Positions 3,076 through 48,177 of a DNA stretch of 64,000 nucleotides are shown piece after piece (positions within the stretch are counted from its first letter, which is position 1; every line of letters starts with the position of its first letter). A program made the translations under genes and the position numbers. Source of the stretch: Candidatus Bathyarchaeia archaeon (GTDB lineage: Archaea; Thermoproteota; Bathyarchaeia; Bathyarchaeales; Bathycorpusculaceae); the NCBI GenBank assembly GCA_050108155.1, contig JBNIDR010000007.1, forward strand, positions 4,592 to 68,591, read 5' to 3'. Below the pieces are notes generated by a model that worked only from the letters and a program-made list of their open reading frames with translations, was not told the DNA's origin and did not search any database.

Positions 3076-4752
3076 TTGTCATCGAATACACAAGCTGGCG
3101 GTGTGCCAGTCCTCGTACTAAAAGAAGGCACAAACAGGTCTCGCGGAAAAGAAGCCCAAAACACCAACATAACCGCAGCTAAAATAGTAGCCGAGAGCGT
3201 CCGAAGCGCCTTAGGACCAAAAGGCATGGATAAAATGCTCGTGGATAGCTTCGGCGATGTAACAATAACCAGTGACGGACGCACAATTCTAGACGAGATG
3301 GATGTGCAGAATCCAGCAGCCAAAATGATGGTGGAAGTTGCTAAGGCACAGGACAACGAGGCAGGGGACGGAACCACCTCAGCCGTTGTTGTGGCAGGGG
3401 AACTTTTAAGCAAAGCCGAAGAGCTCCTAGAAAAGAACATTCACCCCACCGTAATCATCGATGGCTACAAAATAGCCCAAGAGAAAGCCTTGGAAACCAT
3501 CGAAAAAATTGCGTTAACTATAGACCTCAAAGACGCATCATACCTCAAAAAAGCCGCTGTTACCTCCATGGCCAGCAAACTTGTTGCGGAACACAAAGAT
3601 TACTTGGCAGACTTAGTCGTTAAGGCGATGCTTGCTGTGGCAGAAAAACAGGGCACCGGTTACAAAGCAGACGTTGACGATGTTTTGGTGGAGAAGAAAA
3701 CTGGTGACTCCTTGAGGGAAACAACTCTAGTTAGCGGCATAGTCATAGACAAAGAAATAGTCCACGCAGGCATGCCCAAACGCGTCGAAAAAGCAAAAAT
3801 TGCCCTGCTGGATTCCTCCTTGGAAATCGAGAAAACCGAGTACGACTCCAAACTTAGCATTGAAAACCCTGAGCAGATTGAAGCCTTCCTTAATCAGGAA
3901 GAAACCATGCTTAAAGCCATGGCTGACAAAATCGCCGCTTCAGGTGCTAACGTGGTTATCTGCCAAAAAGGCATAGATGACATGGTGCAGCACTTTCTGG
4001 CAAAGAAAGGAATTGCGGCTGTCCGCAGAGCGAAAAAATCAGACATGGAACGGCTAGCCAAAGCCACCTGCGGAAGCATAGTCAGCAACTTGGAATCACT
4101 CACGGCAAAAGACCTCGGCCAAGCAGCACTTGTCGAGGAACGCAAAATTGCCGAAGACAAACTTATCTTTATCGAAGGCTGCAAGCAACCCAAAGCCGTC
4201 ACAATTTTGATTCGCGGTTCTTCGCCGCGTCTAAATAACGAGACGGAGCGGTCAATTCACGATGCCCTCTGTGTAGTGCGCGACTTGATTCGGGAACCCA
4301 AGGTTGTAGCTGGCGGTGGTGCGCCTGAGCTTGAAATGTCTTTGGTAATTAGGAAGTACGCTGAAGGTCAGTCAGGACGAGAGCAGCTTGCGGTTAAAGC
4401 CTTCGCTGACGCCTTGGAGGTAATTGCCACGACGCTAACGGAAAACGCTGGGTTAGACCCAATCGACATACTATCTGACTTGCGGTCAAGGCACGAAAAA
4501 GGCGAAACTTGGGCTGGAATAGAAGTCCTGTCAGGAAAAGTTCAAGACATGTCCAAAGCAGGTGTATACGAACCATTAACAGTAAAAAAACAGATACTCA
4601 AATCTGCCGCTGAAGCCGCAACTCTGATTCTGAAAATCGACGATGTCATAGCTTCCCAAAAGATGAAAGCTCCCCCAATGCCGCCAGGAGGCATGGGCGG
4701 TATGGGCGGAGGCATGGGCGGCATGGGCATGGGTGGAATGGGAGGCTTCTAA
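3076..4752 (+). CDS. ths: Thermosome (group II chaperonin) subunit
   Basis: [23 protein letters not shown] motifs; GGM-repeat C-terminal tail. Confidence 0.97.
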
Positions 4753-16603: not shown

Positions 16604-16984
16604 AAAAGCTGAAGAGGCCACTTCAAAGTTACCATTTCCATTCAACGCTCCCCAATTACTATTATCCAAGATATCCAATGCAGATTTGTTGTATGCTGCC
16701 TCAACACCGCCAAAAATAACGTTTTGAGCAACATGGGTAGTGTATCCGATTGTGAATTTATCGTTGGGATAATATGTTCCATCAGGGTTGATTGAGGGTT
16801 TACCATATTTGTCAAGAAGTGGACCAAAAGCAGATATCGTTACGTTTATTTTTCCTTGATCGCCCGACCCGTCAGCTACAGTGGCTAAACCCTGAGAAGC
16901 AACAACAAACAAACTTGAAGCTATAGATAAAAAAATCAGCAGCCCCGACAAGAAGGCGGCAGTGGTTTTACAAGTTCGTCTCAC
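16604..16984 (-). pseudogene. 5' fragment of a secreted-protein gene, truncated at element copy 3
   Basis: Signal peptide and globular start (MRRTCKTTAAFLSGLLIFL..) run into the element at ..ASSAFSGK; the rest of ORF 16505-16984 is read from the element. Confidence 0.6.
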
Positions 16985-17543
16985 AACTTTCCCCTCCAGC
17001 TTTGCCAGTTAGCTGATATCTTTGCATTTTAGTCTCAAGTATTATCTCCTTAACATCGGTGGGACGCTTCACACCTTTGAGCAGAACACTTTGAAAGGAT
17101 ACACTGTTACTTCTCACCGTGACCGTTCCAAAGTTGAATATTCTACCTACAGCTCCCTGCGAAACAAAAACATCAGATATTTTATCCACAGGGATTTCCT
17201 GGTATTCAGCTCTTATGAAATGACGTTCGGTTGAGACGACACGTTCTGAGACAACGTAAGTACTAGATCGGCCATGATAGTAACCAAAGTTCATTAACAA
17301 TACTGCGATGCCTAATCCTAAAGCCTGAAGCCAAAACAAAGGTTCGTTTGGAAAAAGTATCATGCTGAGAATTGAGGCAATTACGATGGCCATTCCGCTC
17401 GTAAATGACGAAGACGTTAAGACGGCTGGTTCACCTTGCCAAACAATCATATCCAAATATTCAACACCAAGCACGAGTATTATTGAAGTTTTAAAAACAA
17501 CCAAAAGTTTAGAGTGAATACACGCATATGCGTTTCTTAACAA
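16968..17543 (-). CDS. Membrane protein with bacterial PH domain
   Basis: Two TM helices then YVVSERVV..RAEYQEIPVDKISDVFVSQGAVGRIFNFGTVTV. Confidence 0.75.
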   Translation of the reverse strand: MLRNAYACIHSKLLVVFKTSIILVLGVEYLDMIVWQGEPAVLTSSSFTSGMAIVIASILSMILFPNEPLFWLQALGLGIAVLLMNFGYYHGRSSTYVVSERVVSTERHFIRAEYQEIPVDKISDVFVSQGAVGRIFNFGTVTVRSNSVSFQSVLLKGVKRPTDVKEIILETKMQRYQLTGKAGGESCETNL

Positions 17544-26756: not shown

Positions 26757-26969
26757 ATGGAAAAATTACAGTTCAGAGCCGTTCCATTTTCAGAGATAGA
26801 ATCTTGCCCATGTAAACGTCTTGACCCAGAGCATTACTTGCCAGTTCATCGGACTTGGGAGTGCATCTACGCGGGTAAGCTGCGAACGAAAGGAGCTATC
26901 GTGAGAGCGTGGCTAAACGACCAAATAACAACCGACCAATTTCTTTTGGCTTGCAAATACGTGAAGTAA
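26757..26969 (+). CDS. Hypothetical protein
   Basis: 70 aa ORF within the operon, with SD. Confidence 0.5.
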   Translation: MEKLQFRAVPFSEIESCPCKRLDPEHYLPVHRTWECIYAGKLRTKGAIVRAWLNDQITTDQFLLACKYVK

Positions 26970-26998
26970 ACCAACAGCCAAACAAGGAGGCTACTAGA

Positions 26999-28295
26999 AT
27001 GGATGTTAGCGGCATAAAGAATGACATTCGAGACATTAGGATCTTTTCGGGCAGATATTTTCCCTTTATTGTCATTCCGTTGAGCTATGCAAGAATTATA
27101 GCATCTGAGCAGGTACCTACCGCAGGCGTTGACGAAAAGGGCAGAATAGTTGTTAATCCTAACTGGTGGAGTACGCTAAATGTCGAGTCAAAACGGTATG
27201 CGATGATTCATGAATGTTTGCATCTGGTTCTTTGTCACCCTTTCAGAGCAAGAGGTTTTAGCCTAATGGTCTACAATATCTGCGCTGATGGCAAGGTTAA
27301 CTATGCGATAAATGAGGCAAACGTGGCAGGTGTCACTTTCCAAGGTGATGGTTTAGTGACATTGAACTCTCTTGCAACCATAACAAAGCTTCAAGTTGAA
27401 GATTTACGCAAGATGAGCACAGAAGAAATAGTTCGAATTATAGAAAACTCACAAGCTTCAACCCCAATCGAGGAACAAACAACCCAGGAAAGCCAGAATA
27501 ATTCAAAAGGCACCCCAAATTTCGGTGATGACTTGCTTAAGGGACAAGTTGATGGAGAAATCATCCAGAATGGAGAGCGCGCACTTAGCGGGTCCTTAAC
27601 TGAGGAAGAGCTTAAACAGGCATGGAAACAACTCTGCGAAAAAGCCAAAGCTTTTGCTAAGCAAGCTGGAACATTACCGGCATCCCTTGAACGAATCGTT
27701 GATGAGGTACTGGAGGTTAAACCTCCATGGCAGACAACCCTCCGCTTCGGCTTACGCAACAGTTCACTCTTTGACTCAAGCTTTGCATATCCAAACCGTA
27801 AAAACGACGACCTGCCCGGACCAATAGGCTACTCCAGCACTGTCTGGTGCTTGGTGGATAGACAACCAAAGTCAATTCTGAAGACTTTTTGCCCCACACA
27901 CAAGTGGAAGCATCGGACAAGACGAGTTACAACACTTTTTAGGAATAGCCAAACATGAAGCACGAAACGCTTCTCTCCGAGTAGTCGCTTGGGATGCCCA
28001 GGCTTACGATACGCTGAAAGCTGAAAGACCAAGCGAAGTCGCACGCAAGATAGCATCAAAAATGAAGGGCGGCGGCGGAACGGTATGTCTTCCTGCGCTA
28101 CAAAGGGTTCACAAGCTCATGAATGCTGGCGATGCGGTAATTATGCTCACAGACGGAGACATCTTCGACACAGAAAAAGAAGAGACCCAAGGATGGTTCC
28201 GCAGAGTTGCAGATAAAGCAGGTTTTGCCCTGATTGGCTATACCCATAAGCCTGTCGAGGTGCCTGGCTTCACTAAAGCATTCATAGAACTGTAA
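26999..28295 (+). CDS. DUF2201-type metallopeptidase plus vWA protein; predicted spliced, join(26999..27859,27900..28295), 418 aa
   Basis: HECLH zinc motif; after removing 27860-27899 the frame reads VWCLVDTSGSIGQDEL..KGGGGT..MLTDGD (complete MIDAS); explains split ORFs 26909-27958 and 28062-28295. Confidence 0.85.
27860..27899 (+). other. Predicted 40-nt BHB intron in a protein-coding gene
   Basis: Outer UGCUUG/CAAGUG, central GUGG/CCAC, 3-nt bulges AUA and ACA, intron stem GACAA/UUGCC plus AAAGUC/GACUUU. Confidence 0.85.
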
Positions 28296-35851: not shown

Positions 35852-36048
35852 TGGCTAAACGTAAACCACGCTTTACTGTGGCTTGGAAAGAAAACTACCG
35901 AATTACCAGTATACCTGCTGACACACCAGAAGAAGCCATTGAAAAAGCCAAAAACCTAATCGTAACAAGAAGAAACCAAGGAGAATCAACCGATACCTAC
36001 GATTTTGTGGCTTCCGGAGAAGAAAACAACAGAGGTGAACAACTATGA
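35851..36048 (+). CDS. Small hypothetical protein
   Basis: Coupled on both sides by stop/start overlaps. Confidence 0.5.
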   Translation: MAKRKPRFTVAWKENYRITSIPADTPEEAIEKAKNLIVTRRNQGESTDTYDFVASGEENNRGEQL

Positions 36049-37580
36049 GTTTCGAGGATGTCTCTCAAGCGATGAATAAGCTTGTCGCAACAGTTACAGA
36101 TGTTTATCGGGGCTATTGGCAGTACGCAATGGTCGAAACAATCTTTTGCGGACTCCTAATAGGTGAGCCAGTGTTGCTCATCGGCTCTCATGGCGTAATG
36201 AAAACAAGCATGGCAAACTTTGTCGGAACCCTCTTCGATAAACCTGTAGCAACAATAAAAAACAAGGTCCACTCAAGGAATAGCTTGGAAAAATGGCTCG
36301 AAGATTTAGCTTCTCAACTCAAGATAGACCCAGAAAAGCTAACAAAGAACCTAATTGACGGCATCGACACTCAATACGAGCAGACAACAGACGACCTAAC
36401 TGTGACTATAGAAATCGATTTAGTAAAATATTCCCTTGCAGAAAAACTCGCAAAACCAGCTAGAAAGCCAATCAAAGTATTTACTATGCAAGTCAACGAC
36501 CAAATGGACCCCGAAGATCTACTAGGCTATGGCGTAGACCACCCGACCCTTTTAGGATTAAAGCCACCCCATGCGGTTAAATCAGGAAGAGTTGCAGGCG
36601 CCGACTACGTTGTTTTAGATGAAATCTTTGGGGCCACACGTCTGCTTTCCAAGTTGCATCATGTGCTAAATGAAAAAGTTATCGATACCACCGTTGGGTG
36701 CGTTGAGACTAAACCGTTGGGGATAATGCTGTGCACTAATCCGCTAAACGACTTCTATCAAACCAACCTAAAAATCATCAACGCCGCGACGACAGACAGA
36801 TACGCTCTGTCGGCTAGGGGTCTTCCCCCAAGCTCCCAGGAAATCCTGTTTATGTCTGAGCGATGGAAGCACATAAAACTGAAGAAAACCGCGCCCATAG
36901 AACTCATCTATGAAGCAAGAAAACTTGTAGAAGGAGTAAAAATCCCTGAAGAATACATGGTTTTCAGTCTCGGTTTAATAAGCCACCTAAGCAGATGCTA
37001 CTTCAGCGTTTCAACCGGAACAAGAGCAGAAGAAAGCAAGGACCCGTTCGAGGCTGAAAGAGACTGCTCACTCTGCATTTACGGCCAAAATTATCCCTGT
37101 GGATTAGCTAACGTCGGTAAGGTAAGGACCATAGTGAGGCTTCAGCAAACGATCAAGACACATGCGCTACTGAATATGAGAAAAGAAGCTGACGAATCGG
37201 ACCTTGCTTTTGCTCTACTCCATGTTCTTCCACATCGGCTCTCATGGAACAACAACGAATTCTTAGCTGAACAAGGCAGCATATTCACAGCCACCAAAAC
37301 GCTAGTAGAGAAATACGCAAATATTTTCACTTCTCAACAAGCGCAAATAGCCAAAGTTGAAGGACTCATAAAAAGACCAAACGCTAAAGATGCAGCCGAA
37401 CTTAAAACCGCCTTCAGGGATGCACCCATTGCAAGAGCAATACTAGATGAAGTGGTAGACATGATGAAAGAATCAGCAAAGAAGAAAGGAGACACTACAA
37501 CACTTGAAGCTCTAGAATCCAAACTAAACATTGAAAACGCCATAAAAACACTAAAAACCAAACACAACACGGCTTCCTAA
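36045..37580 (+). CDS. MoxR-family AAA+ ATPase
   Basis: GSHGVMKT, VVLDEIF, CTNP, ATTDRY. Confidence 0.8.
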   Translation: MSFEDVSQAMNKLVATVTDVYRGYWQYAMVETIFCGLLIGEPVLLIGSHGVMKTSMANFVGTLFDKPVATIKNKVHSRNSLEKWLEDLASQLKIDPEKLTKNLIDGIDTQYEQTTDDLTVTIEIDLVKYSLAEKLAKPARKPIKVFTMQVNDQMDPEDLLGYGVDHPTLLGLKPPHAVKSGRVAGADYVVLDEIFGATRLLSKLHHVLNEKVIDTTVGCVETKPLGIMLCTNPLNDFYQTNLKIINAATTDRYALSARGLPPSSQEILFMSERWKHIKLKKTAPIELIYEARKLVEGVKIPEEYMVFSLGLISHLSRCYFSVSTGTRAEESKDPFEAERDCSLCIYGQNYPCGLANVGKVRTIVRLQQTIKTHALLNMRKEADESDLAFALLHVLPHRLSWNNNEFLAEQGSIFTATKTLVEKYANIFTSQQAQIAKVEGLIKRPNAKDAAELKTAFRDAPIARAILDEVVDMMKESAKKKGDTTTLEALESKLNIENAIKTLKTKHNTAS

Positions 37581-37643: not shown

Positions 37644-39179
37644 ATGAATAGAGCACTCTATGGAGCATTTAACACCGTTCAGAGCTCTTTTACGCCTGTA
37701 CCACCACCCTTAAAGCTCCAAGTCGACAAGAAAGCCCCAACATTCTCAGTGAATCTATCTCAGATGCTTGTAACCGCTCCAAAATACTGGAACGAACTCA
37801 AATTCTTCAAGGAACTTCTTGGGCATGAAACAAAGCATGCAAGTTCAGACGGTCTTCCCTACACCTATATTAACGCTCTGCGGCATGAAGCAAAAGTCAT
37901 GAGCGAGTTGAATATCAACCTTGGAATGGCTGGTGGCCTTTTGAACATAGTTTACGATGCAGTAGTGGATTTGAGAGTTTCAAAAGAAGGATTAAACGCA
38001 AAAAGCATGTGCATTGAGTGGCTCGACCGATTTCCAATAGACGCCAAAGCTGAAGGATCAAGCTATCATCTGCTCCAGATTATTTACAAAGACTTCTTCG
38101 AAACCCAGCTTAAGGTAACTCAATATGAGCGAGAGCTGAGGCAAAGTTTGGATTATGAAAAACTCAAAAAAATACTAAAAATGTTAGCGCTAAGCACAGC
38201 AAATAATGATCAACAGACCAATGAACTCGTAGTTATAGCAGCCGGATTAGTGGCGCAGCTTTCAAGACCTGAACCGCCCCAAAAGGGAAGGCAGTCAGGG
38301 GATGTTGACTTTGACAGAGGCGACGCGCAGGTTAGATCAGATGCGGCTGAGATCGGTACAAACGCAGGTCTAAACAATCAGCAACTTGCTGAGCTCATGG
38401 GTGTAACAGAAGATGAGCTTGATGAGGCATTGAAAAGGGCATCTGAAGACAAAGTTAGAGCGGCATTGTGGACAACACTGTTGGGTTTCAAAGGTCTTTT
38501 CTCGAGCAAATCCGCACTAGACATACAAGAACCAGCTTGCAAGAGATGGAAACCGTATTCAAAGCGACTGGATCCTTCAAGCACTATCAAATCACCAGAC
38601 GACCCCCGAAAATGGCGTGAGCAAAACCTTGCGACGACATTGACAATCGAATCGGAAGGAGAATCAGGGGGCTTCACAAAGCTCATAATACTGATCGACT
38701 GCTCAGGAAGCACCATAAAACCTTATGGTAGCAAAACGGTTTTGGGCTATATCAAAGATGCCGCCTATAGCCTCATAGCTTACGCCAAAAAGCTCAACCT
38801 TCCAGTGGCTTCAATCGGGTTTAGCAGTAACGCTTGGATCATAGCCAACGAATCAAAAGACTACCTCAAACACGCTCGACAGGTTTTCATGCTAAAACCA
38901 CTTGGAACAACAAAACTTGGAAACGCAGTACAACTAACAGCACGGCTTAGACCTGACAGAGCCCTTATCGCCCTGCTAACGGATGGATATGTAGCCCCTG
39001 AAGATCTTTTGCAGCTTTCTGAACAAACACAGGCAAACAAGGTCATAGCAGCCATTGTCAGCGTAGAAGCAGAGGGTGTAGAAAACATGAAAGCAGTCTC
39101 AAAAAGAGCTGACCTATTTGAAGTCAGGCCGGATAAAACCGGCAAAACAATAATCTCAATGCTGCCAAAGTCCACTTAA
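37644..39179 (+). CDS. vWA (MIDAS) domain protein
   Basis: ILIDCSGS..GTT..LLTDG. Confidence 0.8.
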   Translation: MNRALYGAFNTVQSSFTPVPPPLKLQVDKKAPTFSVNLSQMLVTAPKYWNELKFFKELLGHETKHASSDGLPYTYINALRHEAKVMSELNINLGMAGGLLNIVYDAVVDLRVSKEGLNAKSMCIEWLDRFPIDAKAEGSSYHLLQIIYKDFFETQLKVTQYERELRQSLDYEKLKKILKMLALSTANNDQQTNELVVIAAGLVAQLSRPEPPQKGRQSGDVDFDRGDAQVRSDAAEIGTNAGLNNQQLAELMGVTEDELDEALKRASEDKVRAALWTTLLGFKGLFSSKSALDIQEPACKRWKPYSKRLDPSSTIKSPDDPRKWREQNLATTLTIESEGESGGFTKLIILIDCSGSTIKPYGSKTVLGYIKDAAYSLIAYAKKLNLPVASIGFSSNAWIIANESKDYLKHARQVFMLKPLGTTKLGNAVQLTARLRPDRALIALLTDGYVAPEDLLQLSEQTQANKVIAAIVSVEAEGVENMKAVSKRADLFEVRPDKTGKTIISMLPKST

Positions 39180-42270: not shown

Positions 42271-42642
42271 TTGAATAAACACGAAGTTTTGCAGTTGATT
42301 AAGAGGCTTCAAATTAATCGGTGCCCTGATTGTGGTGGCGATGAAATTCAGATACACACTGATAGATTCTTTATCGTTAATACCGCAAAAATGGAAGCCT
42401 ATGAACCCGAAAAGGAAGCTGATTCAGAGACTTCAGACGTAACTGAAATTGTTTGCCGGAAATGCGGTAGCAGACTTACAGCACTCCAAGACATCATTAT
42501 CTTCAAAACAGCACTCATGGAACAACTGAAAAGTCGCCTCAAGCGCCAACCTACAGACCAAGAATTCCTAAACTACGTTGAAAACTTAGAAACAAACTTG
42601 CCTTCATGGCTACAAACAAAAACATTGGACATACAAACATAG
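42271..42642 (+). CDS. Zn-ribbon protein
   Basis: CPDCGG..CRKCG; TTG start after GGAGGTG. Confidence 0.55.
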   Translation: MNKHEVLQLIKRLQINRCPDCGGDEIQIHTDRFFIVNTAKMEAYEPEKEADSETSDVTEIVCRKCGSRLTALQDIIIFKTALMEQLKSRLKRQPTDQEFLNYVENLETNLPSWLQTKTLDIQT

Positions 42643-42724
42643 ATGCCTTAAATTTGAAAGATTAGAATTTTTCAGAAAGAGATCTGTTCTATTCCGAGCG
42701 AACACTGGCGCCCTCTTTTTTCAA

Positions 42725-43010
42725 GGGCAGTTCATTCGATGTATTCCGGATGAAGCTTTTGGCTTCATTCGATGAGCTGGTAAACTCTCCTGACGATGTC
42801 GGCGGCCTATGCTTGCTGACTGCTCCTCAGTCCAGGTACTGGGGGGTTGGCTTGTCGCGCCAGCCACTGGAAACCTATCCAGTGTTTGCGGCAGAGCCGA
42901 AACATGGAACCGCCAACTGAGGCGTCCATGTTGAGAGCACATAACCAACCCAAGTTTGGATATGCGATTTCGCGATTGACAGTAAAGTCAATTCTTGAAA
43001 GAATTGCCCG
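42725..43010 (+). ncRNA. Candidate structured non-coding RNA
   Basis: At least eight adjacent stems; G-U pairs occur on the + strand; no credible ORF. Confidence 0.4.
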
Positions 43011-43136
43011 ATATGTATAATTGCCTTTGGCAAGTGTCAGGCTATACTATGGCTTGCCTTTTTTACCTTCTTGGCTTAAAAATGAAAAAGCTTAAATAAT
43101 TATCCTATAATTGGATTATCCTGTACGTGGATAATA

Positions 43137-44495
43137 ATGAGATTTTATGATCGTGAAGCTGAACTCACGGCACTTGAAAAGGCCTATTCCACAAAAGGCT
43201 CAGAAATGATAGTCGTCAGTGGGAGAAGACGCATAGGTAAAAGCCGACTTATCGATGAGTTTCTTAAGGATAAGGAACGCACTAAAATCCTCATAGTACC
43301 CAAAGAAGAAAAACAAGTCGCAGTCGATTTTGCAGAGGCTTTTTCCGATGGTTATACTCCATCATTTAATAGCGTTGAATCTGCCTTAGAGTATTTTTTT
43401 AATATCTCCAAGAAAAGGACCTTATACATAGATGAGTTTCCCAATCTTTTAGATGTGGACCCATCTATTCCTTATGCTTTCCAGCGTGTTTGGGAGAAAT
43501 ACAAAGACAAAACAGCAAAGGTCCTCATCGTTTCTGGTTCATATGTTAGTATGATGAATCGAATATTTACACAGCAAAAAGCGCCGCTTTTCAACAGAGC
43601 AGGTTATACCATCGTCTTACAACCCCTATCCCTCAAAGTTGTTTGGGAAATCCAAACGGATCTTGGCATAGGTGCAACTGAAAAAATAGGTAATTACTGT
43701 ATACTGGGCGGTATACCTTACTATTACGAGTTGGTGGAGAAGCGGGCAAAAAGAGATGTTGTCAATGAGCTTTTCTTTGATGTTGCTGCGCCTCTTAAAG
43801 AAGAAGGCCAAAACGTGCTAAGGCAAGAGTTCGGAGCAGGGTACAAGAAATATTTCTCCATCATAGAGGCGATAGGCGCAGGCGTTGTTTCGGGCAGCGA
43901 GATAGCCAATAAACTTGGTCTTGCTCAAACCACCCTGTCTAAATATATAGTGGCGTTACAACGAGATTTCCAACTTATCGAGCGAACTGTACCATTTGGG
44001 CAGAATCTTCAAAGAAGCAAAAAAGGCGTTTACTCAATCAAAGATAACACAATAGCTTTTTGGTTTACAAACGTCTACGGCAAACCGGACCCGCCTACAA
44101 CGGAGAAATTAAACGAGTTCACCAGTAAACGCTTTGAAATATTTTGTAAGGATTTTCTTACCCAGTACCTAAAAGGAAAAGGAGAGACCATAGTCAGAAC
44201 TGGTAGATGGTGGGGCCAAGTTGAAGTTAACTCAGCAAAATTCGAAGATAGGGAGATAGATGTTGTAGTTGAAACTCAAACAAGCCTTTACATAGGTGAA
44301 TGTAAATGGACAAACAAGAAAGTCACTGGGCAAGAACTTAACCGGCTAGGTGAATCTTCAACAGCTCTAAAAACAAAAAAGCCCATAAGAAAAGTATTGT
44401 TCTCAAAAACAGGCTTCGAATTTTCAGAACCAAACGCAGGCACAATGCTATTTGATCCAATAAGGATTGAAACTGAAATAGCCAAACTTGTTTAA
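43137..44495 (+). CDS. Archaeal ATPase (AAA, wHTH, DUF234-like nuclease domain)
   Basis: MRFYDREAEL, GRRRIGKS, YIDEFP, GGIPYY, EIDVV..IGECKW. Confidence 0.88.
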   Translation: MRFYDREAELTALEKAYSTKGSEMIVVSGRRRIGKSRLIDEFLKDKERTKILIVPKEEKQVAVDFAEAFSDGYTPSFNSVESALEYFFNISKKRTLYIDEFPNLLDVDPSIPYAFQRVWEKYKDKTAKVLIVSGSYVSMMNRIFTQQKAPLFNRAGYTIVLQPLSLKVVWEIQTDLGIGATEKIGNYCILGGIPYYYELVEKRAKRDVVNELFFDVAAPLKEEGQNVLRQEFGAGYKKYFSIIEAIGAGVVSGSEIANKLGLAQTTLSKYIVALQRDFQLIERTVPFGQNLQRSKKGVYSIKDNTIAFWFTNVYGKPDPPTTEKLNEFTSKRFEIFCKDFLTQYLKGKGETIVRTGRWWGQVEVNSAKFEDREIDVVVETQTSLYIGECKWTNKKVTGQELNRLGESSTALKTKKPIRKVLFSKTGFEFSEPNAGTMLFDPIRIETEIAKLV

Positions 44496-46024
44496 ACAAA
44501 AATTCCAACTCTATAGGTCTTCACCACTAAAGCATGAGTAAGTGGCCCTTGCGCTTACAACCCTTAAAGTACCCAGAACAATGGCGGGGCAAAAGCTCAA
44601 AAGCAAGTGAACTTACCTGCCCCCCTCTATTATATTATTTTATATATTTTTTGTTTGTTGTTGTCTCTATAAGTGTACTTACTTGTTGTTTGCTTGTGTA
44701 TGGCTGTGTGGTTGGCTGGTTTGTTGTTGGTTGGCTTTGGTTGGTTGGGTTTGTGGGTTGTCGTGTTGCTGGGTCGGCTCCGTTATGGTGCTGTTGGTGA
44801 GTGTTGAGTGGGTGTGCCTTGCCGCTTGGGACGCTTGCAACCGAGATGGAACAGTAAATGACGGCGCAATAGTTCTGCTAGACCGTTCACTTTCATTTCA
44901 CCGAGAACAATCCTTTTGGCGATTCTGCATTGGGAGTGTCAACGGTGTGCCTCTGCCTTAGTTGGGTGTTTGAGTTGCAAGCATTAAACCTCGGTGGCAA
45001 TACTCAACGTACTAGAGTCTTGGTTGGTGGAAATGGCGACTGCTGGGACGACTATGAAGCAGCATATGTGTTGAATGGGATATTCTTAGGGTACCGAGAT
45101 AACTGGATTCAGCTCAGCGCACTAATCTGCAGACCAATATGCAGTCGCACATACTCACGATATGGCGGCAACCAAGTTCGCTTCGGTTCACGCCGACTCA
45201 GGACACAAATCGGGCATTAAACCTTCTCTACGTTTTTTCTTTTTTCAAACAAACCGCAAATTACCAAATTTGGGCTGCACTCACCATGAATAAAAACAAG
45301 CTGCAATAACGAACATACCTGCATTAACCATCACAAAAGCGCCGATCTATCTACAGCCAATGTCACCGCAGCAACAACCGCCCAATAAACATAACAAACC
45401 CAACCTTTTCAATCTGGCCATTTCACACTTCAACAATAGTAACCTGTGACCTAATCACAAAACCCTCAATCAACCAAAAACAAGACAAAACACAGACACA
45501 TTCAACCAACCAATCACTTATACACACCATTAATCAGCCTAATCCAGCACAATAAAACAAACACTCAAAAAACCGTCCCGCCCCAGCAGCCACAACCATG
45601 AAGAAACCAGCTAACCAACACAAAGCAGCCCCACCAAGCCACCAGAACACCTTCAACAGCAAACCAAACCTCTTGGGCGACGCAGACGAGTGGGGGCGCA
45701 GAGGCGGAGAGGGCATGTAACACATTGGGCATCCAGAATACTCAGATGAGGCTGACAAGCACCTCAGAATGGTCTGTGGAAGTTTCAGAAGAAAATGCTA
45801 AAGCATTATGGCAAACATAAATAACAAAGACCAGCTATCACAATCCTTAACGCTCATGAAATTAAGCAACTTTCCTCAAAATTTGATATTAACTCGAGAT
45901 GTGCATGTATGTGACGTTAATATCTTGAAAACGTCAGCGAAGGTTCAACATATCAGTGAAGCCTAACTAATTGATATGAGAACAAGATTCTTTTTTGCTT
46001 GTTGAGAAAAGAAAGTTCTGCGCT

Positions 46025-46162: not shown

Positions 46163-46921
46163 TCTATTCAACTCAACCGCTAAGATGTTATTTATAGACT
46201 TAAGCGTATGTGACTGTGAAGCCACAACAACAGCAGAATATCAACGGAGGTTTAGTTGACCAGTAACAGCGCTTGCGCCAGAAAATTAGGGAAATAGAGG
46301 ATTATTATCTTATGGTGACTTATCGGTAAGGTTTGCGCTGCTTGATTTAAGCGAATGCGAACCCATATTTTGTGAGTTTTTTCAGCTTCTAAGCAATTTT
46401 TGAAAACGCGCGCCTTCTTTTTCCATCATACGCAGTTGCGTGAAAAGAAAGCGCTTAGTAACGCAGCGCTTAGCGCTTCCTGCAATGCAGTTTATAACTA
46501 AACAATCAAGCAGGCGAACCTAAAGGTAGCTGAAGTGCAATGTAAAATAGAAGGTTTATGGCACGTCTTTGGCTGGACGTGCCATGATTAAGGGTTAACA
46601 GGGATTTTTCGAGAAGGGCAGTTTGGGCTATGGCATGCCAACCCTTAACCGCCTCAGTATCAATCCATATTCCATAAAAGTCTTTGCCAAATTAACGGCG
46701 TTATCAAAAACAAAAATGCGATTCCTGTGCATGCTAAACGTTTCAGCTTTAGAGAAAAGCACGGGCATGTGGACAGACAATGGATTGCACTTAAAAGTGT
46801 CAAAAGATCAACTGCACATATACCTACGACCAGTAGTCAAAACGTAGGCGCGCTCAATTTTTTTAGCGCTACTTAGGTACAAACGCAGCTGCGTATCAAA
46901 ATCTGTTATGTAGTTAATAGA

Positions 46922-46952
46922 AAACGAAGCACTAAGTGATTCATTTAGCCCT
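46922..46952 (+). repeat. 31-bp direct repeat, copy 1
   Basis: AAACGAAGCACTAAGTGATTCATTTAGCCCT; 28/31 identical to 63782-63812. Confidence 0.8.
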
Positions 46953-47341
46953 ATAATTCTTCTGATGGCGCTAACTGGGAAGTGGTTGCAATATTTGACC
47001 TTGTGAGAGGAGCAGGCGCAAATGACTGGATTGATGGCTATACAGTTTATTTATTGGCAAACAATGGGGAAATTTATTATGCACAGGAAAGGGGATATTA
47101 CTAATTAATCACTGTAGAAAAACGGTCGATAACTTGGCAAATATAGTAAGATAATTCGTAGTATCGAGTCTTTATTAAATACGGATTTTCTTATTATACA
47201 CATATTGTTGCTTTAGCCCTTGTGTGCAAAAATAGCACGGCAAATTCAGGTTTAAGAATCAATTTAATACTATGGGAATATTATGAGAAATAGGTATCAA
47301 TAACGTTTTTACTTCTGTTTAAACCGTATTGTCTAATTGGG

Positions 47342-47563
47342 ATGTGTGTGTTTATGGTTGCCTTCGAGTGCCCCTTCTGCAACCAAACCATCGAGACAAA
47401 ACCGCCTGATAAAGTTCATTCATCGTATTCTTTTGAGAGACCAATAGCTAAAAGTTACCATGGCAAATTAATCGAAAAAGAGATAACTTGTCCAAACCCA
47501 GAATGCAGAGAACCAATCACAGTTTATTGGTATGCACCACTGGACTACTTTAATAGAGTATAG
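47342..47563 (+). CDS. Zn-ribbon protein
   Basis: CPFCN..CPNPEC. Confidence 0.6.
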   Translation: MCVFMVAFECPFCNQTIETKPPDKVHSSYSFERPIAKSYHGKLIEKEITCPNPECREPITVYWYAPLDYFNRV

Positions 47564-47646
47564 CCAACCCAAAGGTAACTTTAGTTGTCTGTTCTAAAAA
47601 GTAGATTTAAGTGCTGTTTATAGCTTACAATAATTGGGGTAGCTGA

Positions 47647-48177
47647 ATGAGCCAGAAGCGTGCGCTAGTATTAGTCGGTGTTGGAGTAGCTTTTATTGTC
47701 TTAGCGTTAGCGCTACTGCTAGCGGGTAATCAACCAGCGGCATCCTCAACACCCGAATCAAAAGGTGGTGTCTATCTGCATTTTTCAAGCGACTATCAAG
47801 ACGGCGCTCAAACCAAAGCTTACTTGATTGACTCACAACTCTATTACGGAGTTTATAATCAAAGCTTCTCTCGTTCGGGTGCTACAGGTGACTATTCAGT
47901 TAACAAGGGCAACCCCTGCATAATCATTAATGGAACAATCAGAAACGACTATGACAAGGATTACTATTTCGGCATAACAGCAAACGTGAACAATGCCGCT
48001 GGAGACAAAATCGAACCAATACTTACTATTAACTCGCCGCATCCGGGCTTTACTTTGACAAAAATCGATAAAGACTCAACAGGGTACTTCGAGCTACAGA
48101 TTAAATACGAGGGCAAAGACATCGTTAACTATAACCTTTTCATAGCGTTTGAACCCTCCGAAGTTGCTCCGCCGTAA
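47647..48177 (+). CDS. Membrane-anchored exported protein
   Basis: N-terminal TM helix. Confidence 0.65.
   Translation: MSQKRALVLVGVGVAFIVLALALLLAGNQPAASSTPESKGGVYLHFSSDYQDGAQTKAYLIDSQLYYGVYNQSFSRSGATGDYSVNKGNPCIIINGTIRNDYDKDYYFGITANVNNAAGDKIEPILTINSPHPGFTLTKIDKDSTGYFELQIKYEGKDIVNYNLFIAFEPSEVAPP

Follow-up and report, generated by a model that had tools for sequence, protein, structure and literature searches.

What is encoded at the 3′ end of a long operon in Candidatus Bathyarchaeia, where potential hairpins crowd into a few hundred bases? The locus lies in a 64,000-nucleotide (nt) stretch of assembly GCA_050108155.1 (contig JBNIDR010000007.1, positions 4,592–68,591 of the forward strand), here called the window, to which coordinates refer unless a contig or locus is named. 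A first-pass annotation, made from the letters alone, had proposed an uncharacterised, element-encoded large structured RNA at 42705–43010. Most of that description stands: the RNA is conserved, structured, carried by an element and read from the plus strand at the end of the operon. Comparison of eight copies redraws its extent to 42691–42937 (+), a 247-nt core (approximately 245 bases) at the operon's 3′ end, and it can no longer be called uncharacterised because it contains a hammerhead core. We propose that this RNA probably cleaves itself by the hammerhead mechanism, in the type I topology with stem I open. The novelty is in its build, with a multi-helix stem II junction and an added 5′ domain, and not in its catalytic class.

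A conserved, folded RNA on the plus strand

The region is GC-richer than its surroundings, as had been noticed at first pass (0.55 at 42700–42899 versus 0.37–0.42 in the flanks). Its plus strand at 42690–43070 folds with a minimum free energy (MFE) of −138 kcal/mol and a z score of −5.07, and none of 100 dinucleotide shuffles folded as well. The z score is −3.28 for the minus strand and −3.70 for the 247-nt core alone.

A homologue search, proposed in the first-pass annotation as a check, returned eight full-length copies: the window copy, G069a, G069b, G559, G469, L049, L050 and L045. The RNA was found in 4 of 120 genomes of the genus, by BLAST and with R1, a covariance model built on its 5′ half; of 332 genomes in the family, 5 contain the hammerhead half. 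A second model (R2), run on 151 genomes drawn from the class, gave no further copy and one weak partial chance match only. A metagenome scan added three full-length copies (L049, L050 and L045) and one truncated copy, and three scans of viral contigs in IMG/VR, two with DNA patterns and one with the von Willebrand factor A (vWA) protein of the operon, gave no match. Identity to the window copy is 86% for G069a and 85% for G069b (with an identical match from the G078 copy); over the hammerhead half it is 82% for G559 and 77% for G469. The distribution among relatives is patchy, and the RNA occurs once in its own 2.55-Mb genome.

Alignment of the eight full-length copies (A7), the basis of all fold and covariation counts, yields a shared fold of 75 pairs in which 96.5% of 597 cells are paired. 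Both sides have changed in 11 pairs (24 cells), against 1–4 pairs (1–6 cells) in controls in which pairing partners were slid by 1–3 columns, and the covariation score was unmatched by any of 500 column shuffles. The RNAalifold fold and the explicit pair count agree, with covariation in helices P1, P2, P4 and P7 and in the last hairpin, stem III. Single-sequence MFE folds contain P2, P4, P5, P6, P7 and stem III in all eight copies and stem I in six, and the window sequence gives the same skeleton by itself. Invariant blocks alternate with loops that vary in sequence and length, with indels of 1–3 nt; these loops have diverged past recognition whereas the core is unchanged. The alignment holds 55 cells with G-U pairs and 13 with A-C, and G-U is fixed in 8/8 copies at three positions; the folded RNA is therefore the plus strand, on which the first-pass annotation had also placed its G-U pairs. 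The locus encodes a conserved structured RNA on that strand.

A degenerate insertion sequence (IS) end or a coding remnant, the outcomes that the first-pass annotation had set against its own reading, has next to no probability. Open stretches of 75–78 codons do occur in the window copy and in G069a, yet no reading frame is common to the eight copies, the loops carry indels of 1–3 nt, and the block shared by the window and genome G031 falls in a different frame in each. The longest stop-free stretch switches strand and frame among copies and is at most 46 amino acids (aa) in two of them, and no plus-strand open reading frame (ORF) of at least 60 aa was judged credible at 42705–43010, as had been claimed. 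Against an IS end stand the single genomic copy, the constant gene context and the covarying pairs.

Comparison with Rfam 15 gave no match at the gathering score anywhere in the window, and at E ≤ 10 on 42500–43250 it returned three meaningless micro-matches, consistent with the first-pass failure to match known classes. The window contains no transfer RNA (tRNA) or transfer-messenger RNA (tmRNA). An omega RNA of TnpB or IscB and an IS110 bridge RNA were rejected: the neighbours encode a 126-aa zinc-ribbon protein and an Arch_ATPase/DUF234 protein, the RNA is single-copy, and HEARO had no match.

Every stem listed at first pass is found in the sequence, and the comparison sorts them. ATTGAC/GTCAAT and CAATTCTT/AAGAATTG (42976–43008) are kept in the closest copy only and fall beyond the conserved RNA; relatives have not preserved the duplicated TTCATTCGATG. 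GGTTGGC/GCCAGCC gives way to the long-range helix P6, and CCAG/CTGG forms one portion of the 9-bp helix P5. CAGTTCA/TGAGCTG can pair in all eight copies but competes with the better-covarying P1. Two further candidates, pairing of a 5′ CACUGG with a downstream CCAGUG or with GCGCCAG, are lost in relatives.

Hammerhead core and branched stem II

The shared fold places the parts of a type I hammerhead in one chain. CUCUC at 42785–42789 (stem I strand 2.x) pairs with GAGAG at 42933–42937 (strand 1.x), the last 5 nt of the conserved unit. Directly 3′ of CUCUC is CUGACGA (42790–42796), corresponding to C3–A9 of the consensus CUGANGA; six of its positions are invariant, and N7 (C, A or U) is the sole variable column of a 24-nt invariant block around it. 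GAA at 42899–42901 corresponds to G12, A13 and A14 and is invariant in 8/8 copies. Stem III follows at 42902–42931, with 7 bp, an inner helix and a loop, A15.1–U16.1 as its closing pair and C15.2–G16.2 next. The closing pair A42902–U42931 is invariant, the next changes from C-G to U-A once, and three of the seven pairs carry two-sided changes (four of U-A to C-G, plus C-G to U-A and A-U to G-C). H17 is the invariant U42932, in the triplet GUU (AUU in G069b), so that the predicted cut falls at 42932|42933. All 11 fixed nucleotides of the type I core, with N7, H17 and stems I and III, stand in the correct order and adjacency.

The first-pass annotation had found no hammerhead signature, and the full type I core appears only once the long-range helices are drawn. 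Both the CUCUC/GAGAG closure and the stem III hairpin were output by RNAalifold before any hammerhead model was considered. Stem I is 100% paired in the eight copies with one U-A to U-G change, so its support is thermodynamic and not covariational; inspection showed no pairing beyond 5 bp. In the reaction that we propose, the transcript would fold so that CUCUC pairs with GAGAG, and this pairing would gather CUGACGA, GAA and A15.1–U16.1 around U42932. The 2′-OH of U42932 would attack its own 3′ phosphate, giving an upstream RNA that ends in a 2′,3′-cyclic phosphate and a downstream RNA that begins GAGAG with a 5′-OH.

How often such an arrangement arises by chance was estimated with a descriptor requiring stem I of at least 5 bp, CUGANGA, at most 160 nt, GAAA, stem III of at least 4 bp closed by A-U, and UH. 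The 2.55-Mb genome contains 12 such sites, and only the RNA at 42691–42937 has a stem III of at least 7 bp. Of the remaining 11, nine lie within open frames of at least 150 aa and two under frames of 93–95 aa, and their stems are all of 4–6 bp. Ten block-shuffled genomes averaged 3.7 sites per 5.1 Mb, or 0.3 when stem III had to reach 7 bp. This corresponds to a chance match per 250-nt stretch, counting both strands, of approximately 4 × 10⁻⁴ (3 × 10⁻⁵ for stem III of at least 7 bp), an estimate that needs a roughly tenfold discount for multiple testing, the match having been spotted by eye after other RNA classes.

Where an ordinary hammerhead has a stem II hairpin, this RNA has three helices joined by single invariant nucleotides. 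After A9 come U42797, hairpin P4 (42798–42820), U42821, hairpin P5 (42822–42847), U42848 and then P6 (42849–42898), which pairs GGC 42849–42851 with GCC 42896–42898 and GUCGCG with UGCGGC; C42898 abuts G12 with zero nt between, and this spacing too is invariant. In P4 two pairs have changed on both sides, and in P5 all changes are one-sided (G-U/A-U); both hairpins form in every single-sequence MFE. P6 also forms in 8/8 MFE folds and is almost invariant, so that covariation speaks neither for nor against it. It encloses an internal loop with CCAGC (42860–42864) and hairpin P7 (42865–42884), in which one pair has changed on both sides.

A single canonical stem II helix is therefore absent: the strand that follows A9 (after one U) belongs to P4, the strand that precedes G12 belongs to P6, and P5 stands between them. 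A G-C pair adjoins the core on each side (G42798–C42820 and G42849–C42898), but in different helices. For this reason we class the RNA as a hammerhead variant and not as an ordinary member. The core, P4, P5 and P6 are modelled as a four-way junction with the G-A pairs of the core as its fourth arm. Because C42898 and G42899 are joined without a linker, P6 is most likely the helix stacked on the core, acting as the working stem II with G42849–C42898 as G10.1–C11.1, and the model suggests that P4 and P5 stack on one another beside it.

Upstream of stem I lies a conserved, covarying 5′ domain of approximately 90 nt (P1, P1a and P2), which is unusual for a hammerhead. Its first part (42691–42738, +) opens with an invariant AUUC, followed by P1, which pairs CGAGCGAAC at 42695–42703 with GUUCAUUCG at 42730–42738 and encloses hairpin P1a (42710–42728). 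Three of the nine P1 pairs show two-sided change (A-U to G-C and C-G to U-A, three times each), 94% of its cells are paired, and it appears in the single-sequence MFE of six of the eight copies. The alternative helix noted at first pass, UGAGCUG with CAGUUCA (42728–42734), is mutually exclusive with P1 and is the window's own MFE choice. Hairpin P2 (42747–42771, +; CGGAUGAAGC/GCUUCAUUCG) has two pairs changed on both sides, is 98.6% paired and forms in 8/8 MFE folds. Between P2 and stem I, the linker at 42773–42784 (+) carries the invariant UGAGCUGGUAAA. Within this linker, GCUGG (42776–42780) can pair over 5 bp with CCAGC in the internal loop of P6 in all eight copies, in columns that never vary. 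This candidate pseudoknot could supply the tertiary contact between stems I and II that fast hammerheads need.

Beyond the multiple-testing discount, several points weigh against self-cleavage. A U at H17 is the rarest cleavage-site base. The eight copies represent only about six independent lineages. Within the hammerhead part, roughly 59% of columns do not vary, making core invariance alone weak evidence, and stem I, P6 and the proposed pseudoknot are invariant, so that covariation neither supports nor tests them. The Rfam hammerhead models (RF00163, RF00008, RF02276 and others) give no match even at E ≤ 10, and a genome scan with RF00163 has none at the RNA site, an outcome to be expected if approximately 100 nt stand in for a stem II hairpin of 10–20 nt. 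Our literature search found no published hammerhead with helices inserted at the stem II position. Known alignments hold at most 1–2 nt between CUGAnGA and the adjacent stems (Eckert and Weinberg, PMC10085705); P4 obeys this spacing rule, yet its partner strand is not beside GAAA. Insertions in the core, weak stems and pseudoknots are described by Perreault et al. (PMC3088659), and a branched stem II is not among their cases.

The main rival explanation is a non-catalytic structured RNA or 3′ untranslated region element, such as a protein scaffold or a stabiliser of the messenger RNA (mRNA) 3′ end, in which the core is a coincidence or a dead relic. The size of the RNA, approximately four times that of ordinary hammerheads, fits such an element, as do the failure of the Rfam hammerhead models, the unprecedented stem II architecture and the long sequence-invariant stretches of P5 and P6, which suggest constraint beyond pairing. 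We nevertheless hold this explanation to be unlikely: the full arrangement of core and helices has the low chance probability given above, the core bases are fixed except at N7 while the loops are saturated with change, and the core decays where the RNA is broken.

That decay is seen in two truncated copies, one in G031 (contig C46, locus L034, 8942–9092) and one in L047 (439–589). Both keep the 5′ domain together with P4 and one half of P5, and nothing beyond the 5′ strand of P5, with homology breaking directly 3′ of the invariant UGCUGACUGCUCCUCAG. In both, the core is mutated to CUGAUAU, as would be expected of decay once function has gone. An ORF of 178 aa without a Pfam match (L034, 9010–9546) starts inside the G031 copy and continues out of it.

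The border between operon and cargo

The window belongs to a conjugative-type element, with genes for a TrwB/VirD4-like coupling protein, its own TATA-binding protein (TBP), a prepilin peptidase and type II secretion system (T2SS) E/F-type (type IV pilus) components. The RNA starts approximately 50 nt 3′ of the last gene of a long plus-strand operon, which encodes a 126-aa zinc-ribbon protein. The AT-rich spacer between them contains T-runs, and no box recurs in it at a set distance; the RNA may be transcribed together with the operon or from a promoter of its own in this spacer. This gene precedes the RNA in every full copy with upstream sequence, and the order of operon then RNA is kept in G069b, G559, G469, L049 and L050. 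On contig C91 of G069 (locus L031), two direct copies of the RNA lie 13.3 kb apart (3463–3708 and 16780–17027); upstream of the first, G069a, only 140 nt from the 3′ end of the 126-aa gene remain, fused to a TBP-like ORF. A transcript across both would be cut at two sites, leaving ends suited to ligation by RtcB.

What follows the RNA differs between loci. In the window, L049 and G469, it is an Arch_ATPase/DUF234 gene that matches the defence candidate PDC-S27; in the window this gene (43137–44495, +; 452 aa) hits that PADLOC candidate family with E = 1.6 × 10⁻⁴⁰. In L045 an M24 peptidase gene precedes the Arch_ATPase/DUF234 gene, and G069a and G069b are followed by unrelated ORFs. In G559, 230 nt 3′ of the RNA, lies a conserved odd element that is 1.7 kb downstream in the window (44600–45720). 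Because it follows the RNA in some loci only, the Arch_ATPase/DUF234 gene appears from its distribution to behave as cargo. Homology between the window and G069b/G078 stops exactly at 42937, the final base of stem I. Together, this stop and the differing downstream genes indicate that the RNA marks the border between a conserved backbone and swappable cargo.

The variable 3′ tail at 42938–43063 (+), the predicted 3′ cleavage product, is kept only in G069a, the closest copy; four copies carry a GAUCGCA...UGCGAUUUC hairpin in its place. In the window the tail ends in a terminator-like hairpin and T6 (43038–43063, +), to which the released downstream RNA would run. If the operon transcript reads into the RNA, cleavage would give it a fixed, heavily folded 3′ end, uncoupled from the cargo RNA downstream. 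Most likely, to judge from sequence and context, the RNA is a self-cleaving element for 3′-end processing or insulation.

The same position invites a DNA-level explanation, with a folded single strand acting as the origin of transfer, or as the place of recombination or cargo insertion. The coupling protein, the exact fit to the backbone–cargo border, the second, partly duplicated copy in G069 and the broken copies in G031 and L047 would suit it. We regard it as very unlikely: the 55 G-U pairs, three of them fixed in all copies, would be G-T pairs in DNA and lie on one strand, no integrase or relaxase gene is adjacent, and the hammerhead core would be left without explanation. Homology also breaks at different points by locus (42502, 42830 and 42937), which leaves no single core site; an att site is ruled out by these differing breakpoints.

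The operon proteins prompt another comparison. A MoxR ATPase (36045–37580) and a 511-aa protein carrying a vWA domain at its C terminus (37644–39179, +) are encoded 3.5–6 kb upstream of the RNA in the same operon, and the latter resembles Ro60 in size and layout, as if the RNA were a partner of these proteins in the way that Y RNA is of Ro60. This we find extremely improbable. In its N-terminal half, the vWA protein has an HExxH motif (H61, E62 and H65) that is invariant in 27 homologues, which makes the protein, by its sequence, a putative metallopeptidase–vWA fusion in place of a TROVE ring, and there is no TROVE match and no Rfam match to Y_RNA or YrlA. Homologues of the vWA protein reach a Thermococcus metagenome-assembled genome (MAG) at 46% identity, with approximately 40 homologues in metagenomes, and a DUF2201_N protein at 26909–27958 is likewise of the peptidase–vWA type. 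Searches of the operon proteins against PHROGs yielded nothing useful, and against PADLOC no match.

Moreover, a divergent operon in G269 (contig C32, locus L061) has no counterpart of the RNA, even with search filters off. That cluster encodes a radical SAM protein, a 396-aa protein, MoxR and a peptidase–vWA protein (46% identical), followed by partly different small genes. Because this gene cluster lacks the RNA, the putative ribozyme appears to be restricted to one sub-lineage of these elements.

Two further features of the window lie beyond the cargo gene. The ORF-poor element of approximately 1.1 kb at 44600–45720 is kept downstream of every RNA copy with enough sequence, with relatives at L060 11870–12640, L031 5374–5549 and L032 6538–6659. 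In it, an AT-rich stretch of 45 nt with the palindrome GTAAGTGnACTTAC on either side is followed by a GT-rich low-complexity arm (44640–44830), a mixed core and a CA-rich arm (45240–45680), and the two arms pair in the MFE fold. Candidate identities for the element are an origin-like region, a promoter region and a very large hairpin RNA. The ORF-poor stretches at 46548–46695, 46880–46953, 46953–47090 and 47346–47700 have copies of 79–88% identity on contig C25 of the same genome, and a further copy of one of them, at 92% identity, lies elsewhere on C7; they are dispersed repeats.

Relation to known self-cleaving RNAs

No small ribozyme has been studied more than the hammerhead, which is taken to be defined by a three-way junction and a simple stem II, features assumed by every search model. 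If this RNA cleaves as proposed, the core tolerates a branch at the interface of A9/G10.1–C11.1/G12, and current covariance models are blind to branched forms, so that hammerheads may be under-counted. Bathyarchaeia, an abundant uncultured sediment lineage, and conjugative-type elements would join the hosts of self-cleaving RNAs, with a fixed RNA-processing site at the border of backbone and cargo. The RNA would also offer a natural test case for the regulation of hammerheads by large peripheral domains.

Such regulation recalls engineered aptazymes (for example, PMC12747935), in which a complex folded domain occupies the same stem II site; the helix beside G12 would likewise relay the folding state of that domain to the core. 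Those constructs are artificial and have a continuous bridge helix, whereas here the domain is natural and has no known ligand, and the junction begins at A9/G12. A natural allosteric hammerhead, in which the nearly invariant stem II junction or the 5′ domain gates cleavage by sensing the state of the transcript, a protein or a ligand, is a speculative and improbable extension. One possible gate would be a switch between P1 and CAGUUCA/UGAGCUG that frees or hides the GCUGG strand of the pseudoknot. Were this so, the RNA would be the first natural counterpart of engineered stem II aptazymes and would control how far backbone transcripts extend into the cargo of conjugative elements.

Auxiliary helices that pre-organise a small core are familiar from the natural four-way form of the hairpin ribozyme, which has a different core and cleavage context and is not homologous. 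The four-way twister-sister ribozyme (PMC5660989) likewise uses auxiliary helices at a four-way junction to pre-organise a small core, and it too is non-homologous, with a different core and cleavage context. Within the hammerhead class, the non-circularly permuted SGC and CSG types (Eckert and Weinberg 2023, PMC10085705) show that the core tolerates unexpected connectivity outside its three blocks. Unlike these, the Bathyarchaeia RNA keeps the classic C-G-S block order, and its novelty is the branch in stem II, not a permutation.

The closest likeness is to the type I hammerheads of bacteria, phages and prophages (RF00163; Perreault et al. 2011, PMC3088659), with which the RNA shares the block order of stem I, CUGANGA, stem II, GAAA, stem III, UH and stem I. 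It also shares A15.1–U16.1 and C15.2–G16.2, a short open stem I and a position between mobile-element genes, and a pseudoknot from tail to stem II could form. It differs in having three helices (approximately 100 nt) at a four-way junction where type I hammerheads have a 2–6-bp stem II hairpin, in its total of approximately 245 nt against their 50–80 nt, in its conserved 90-nt 5′ domain and in its host, an element of Bathyarchaeia.

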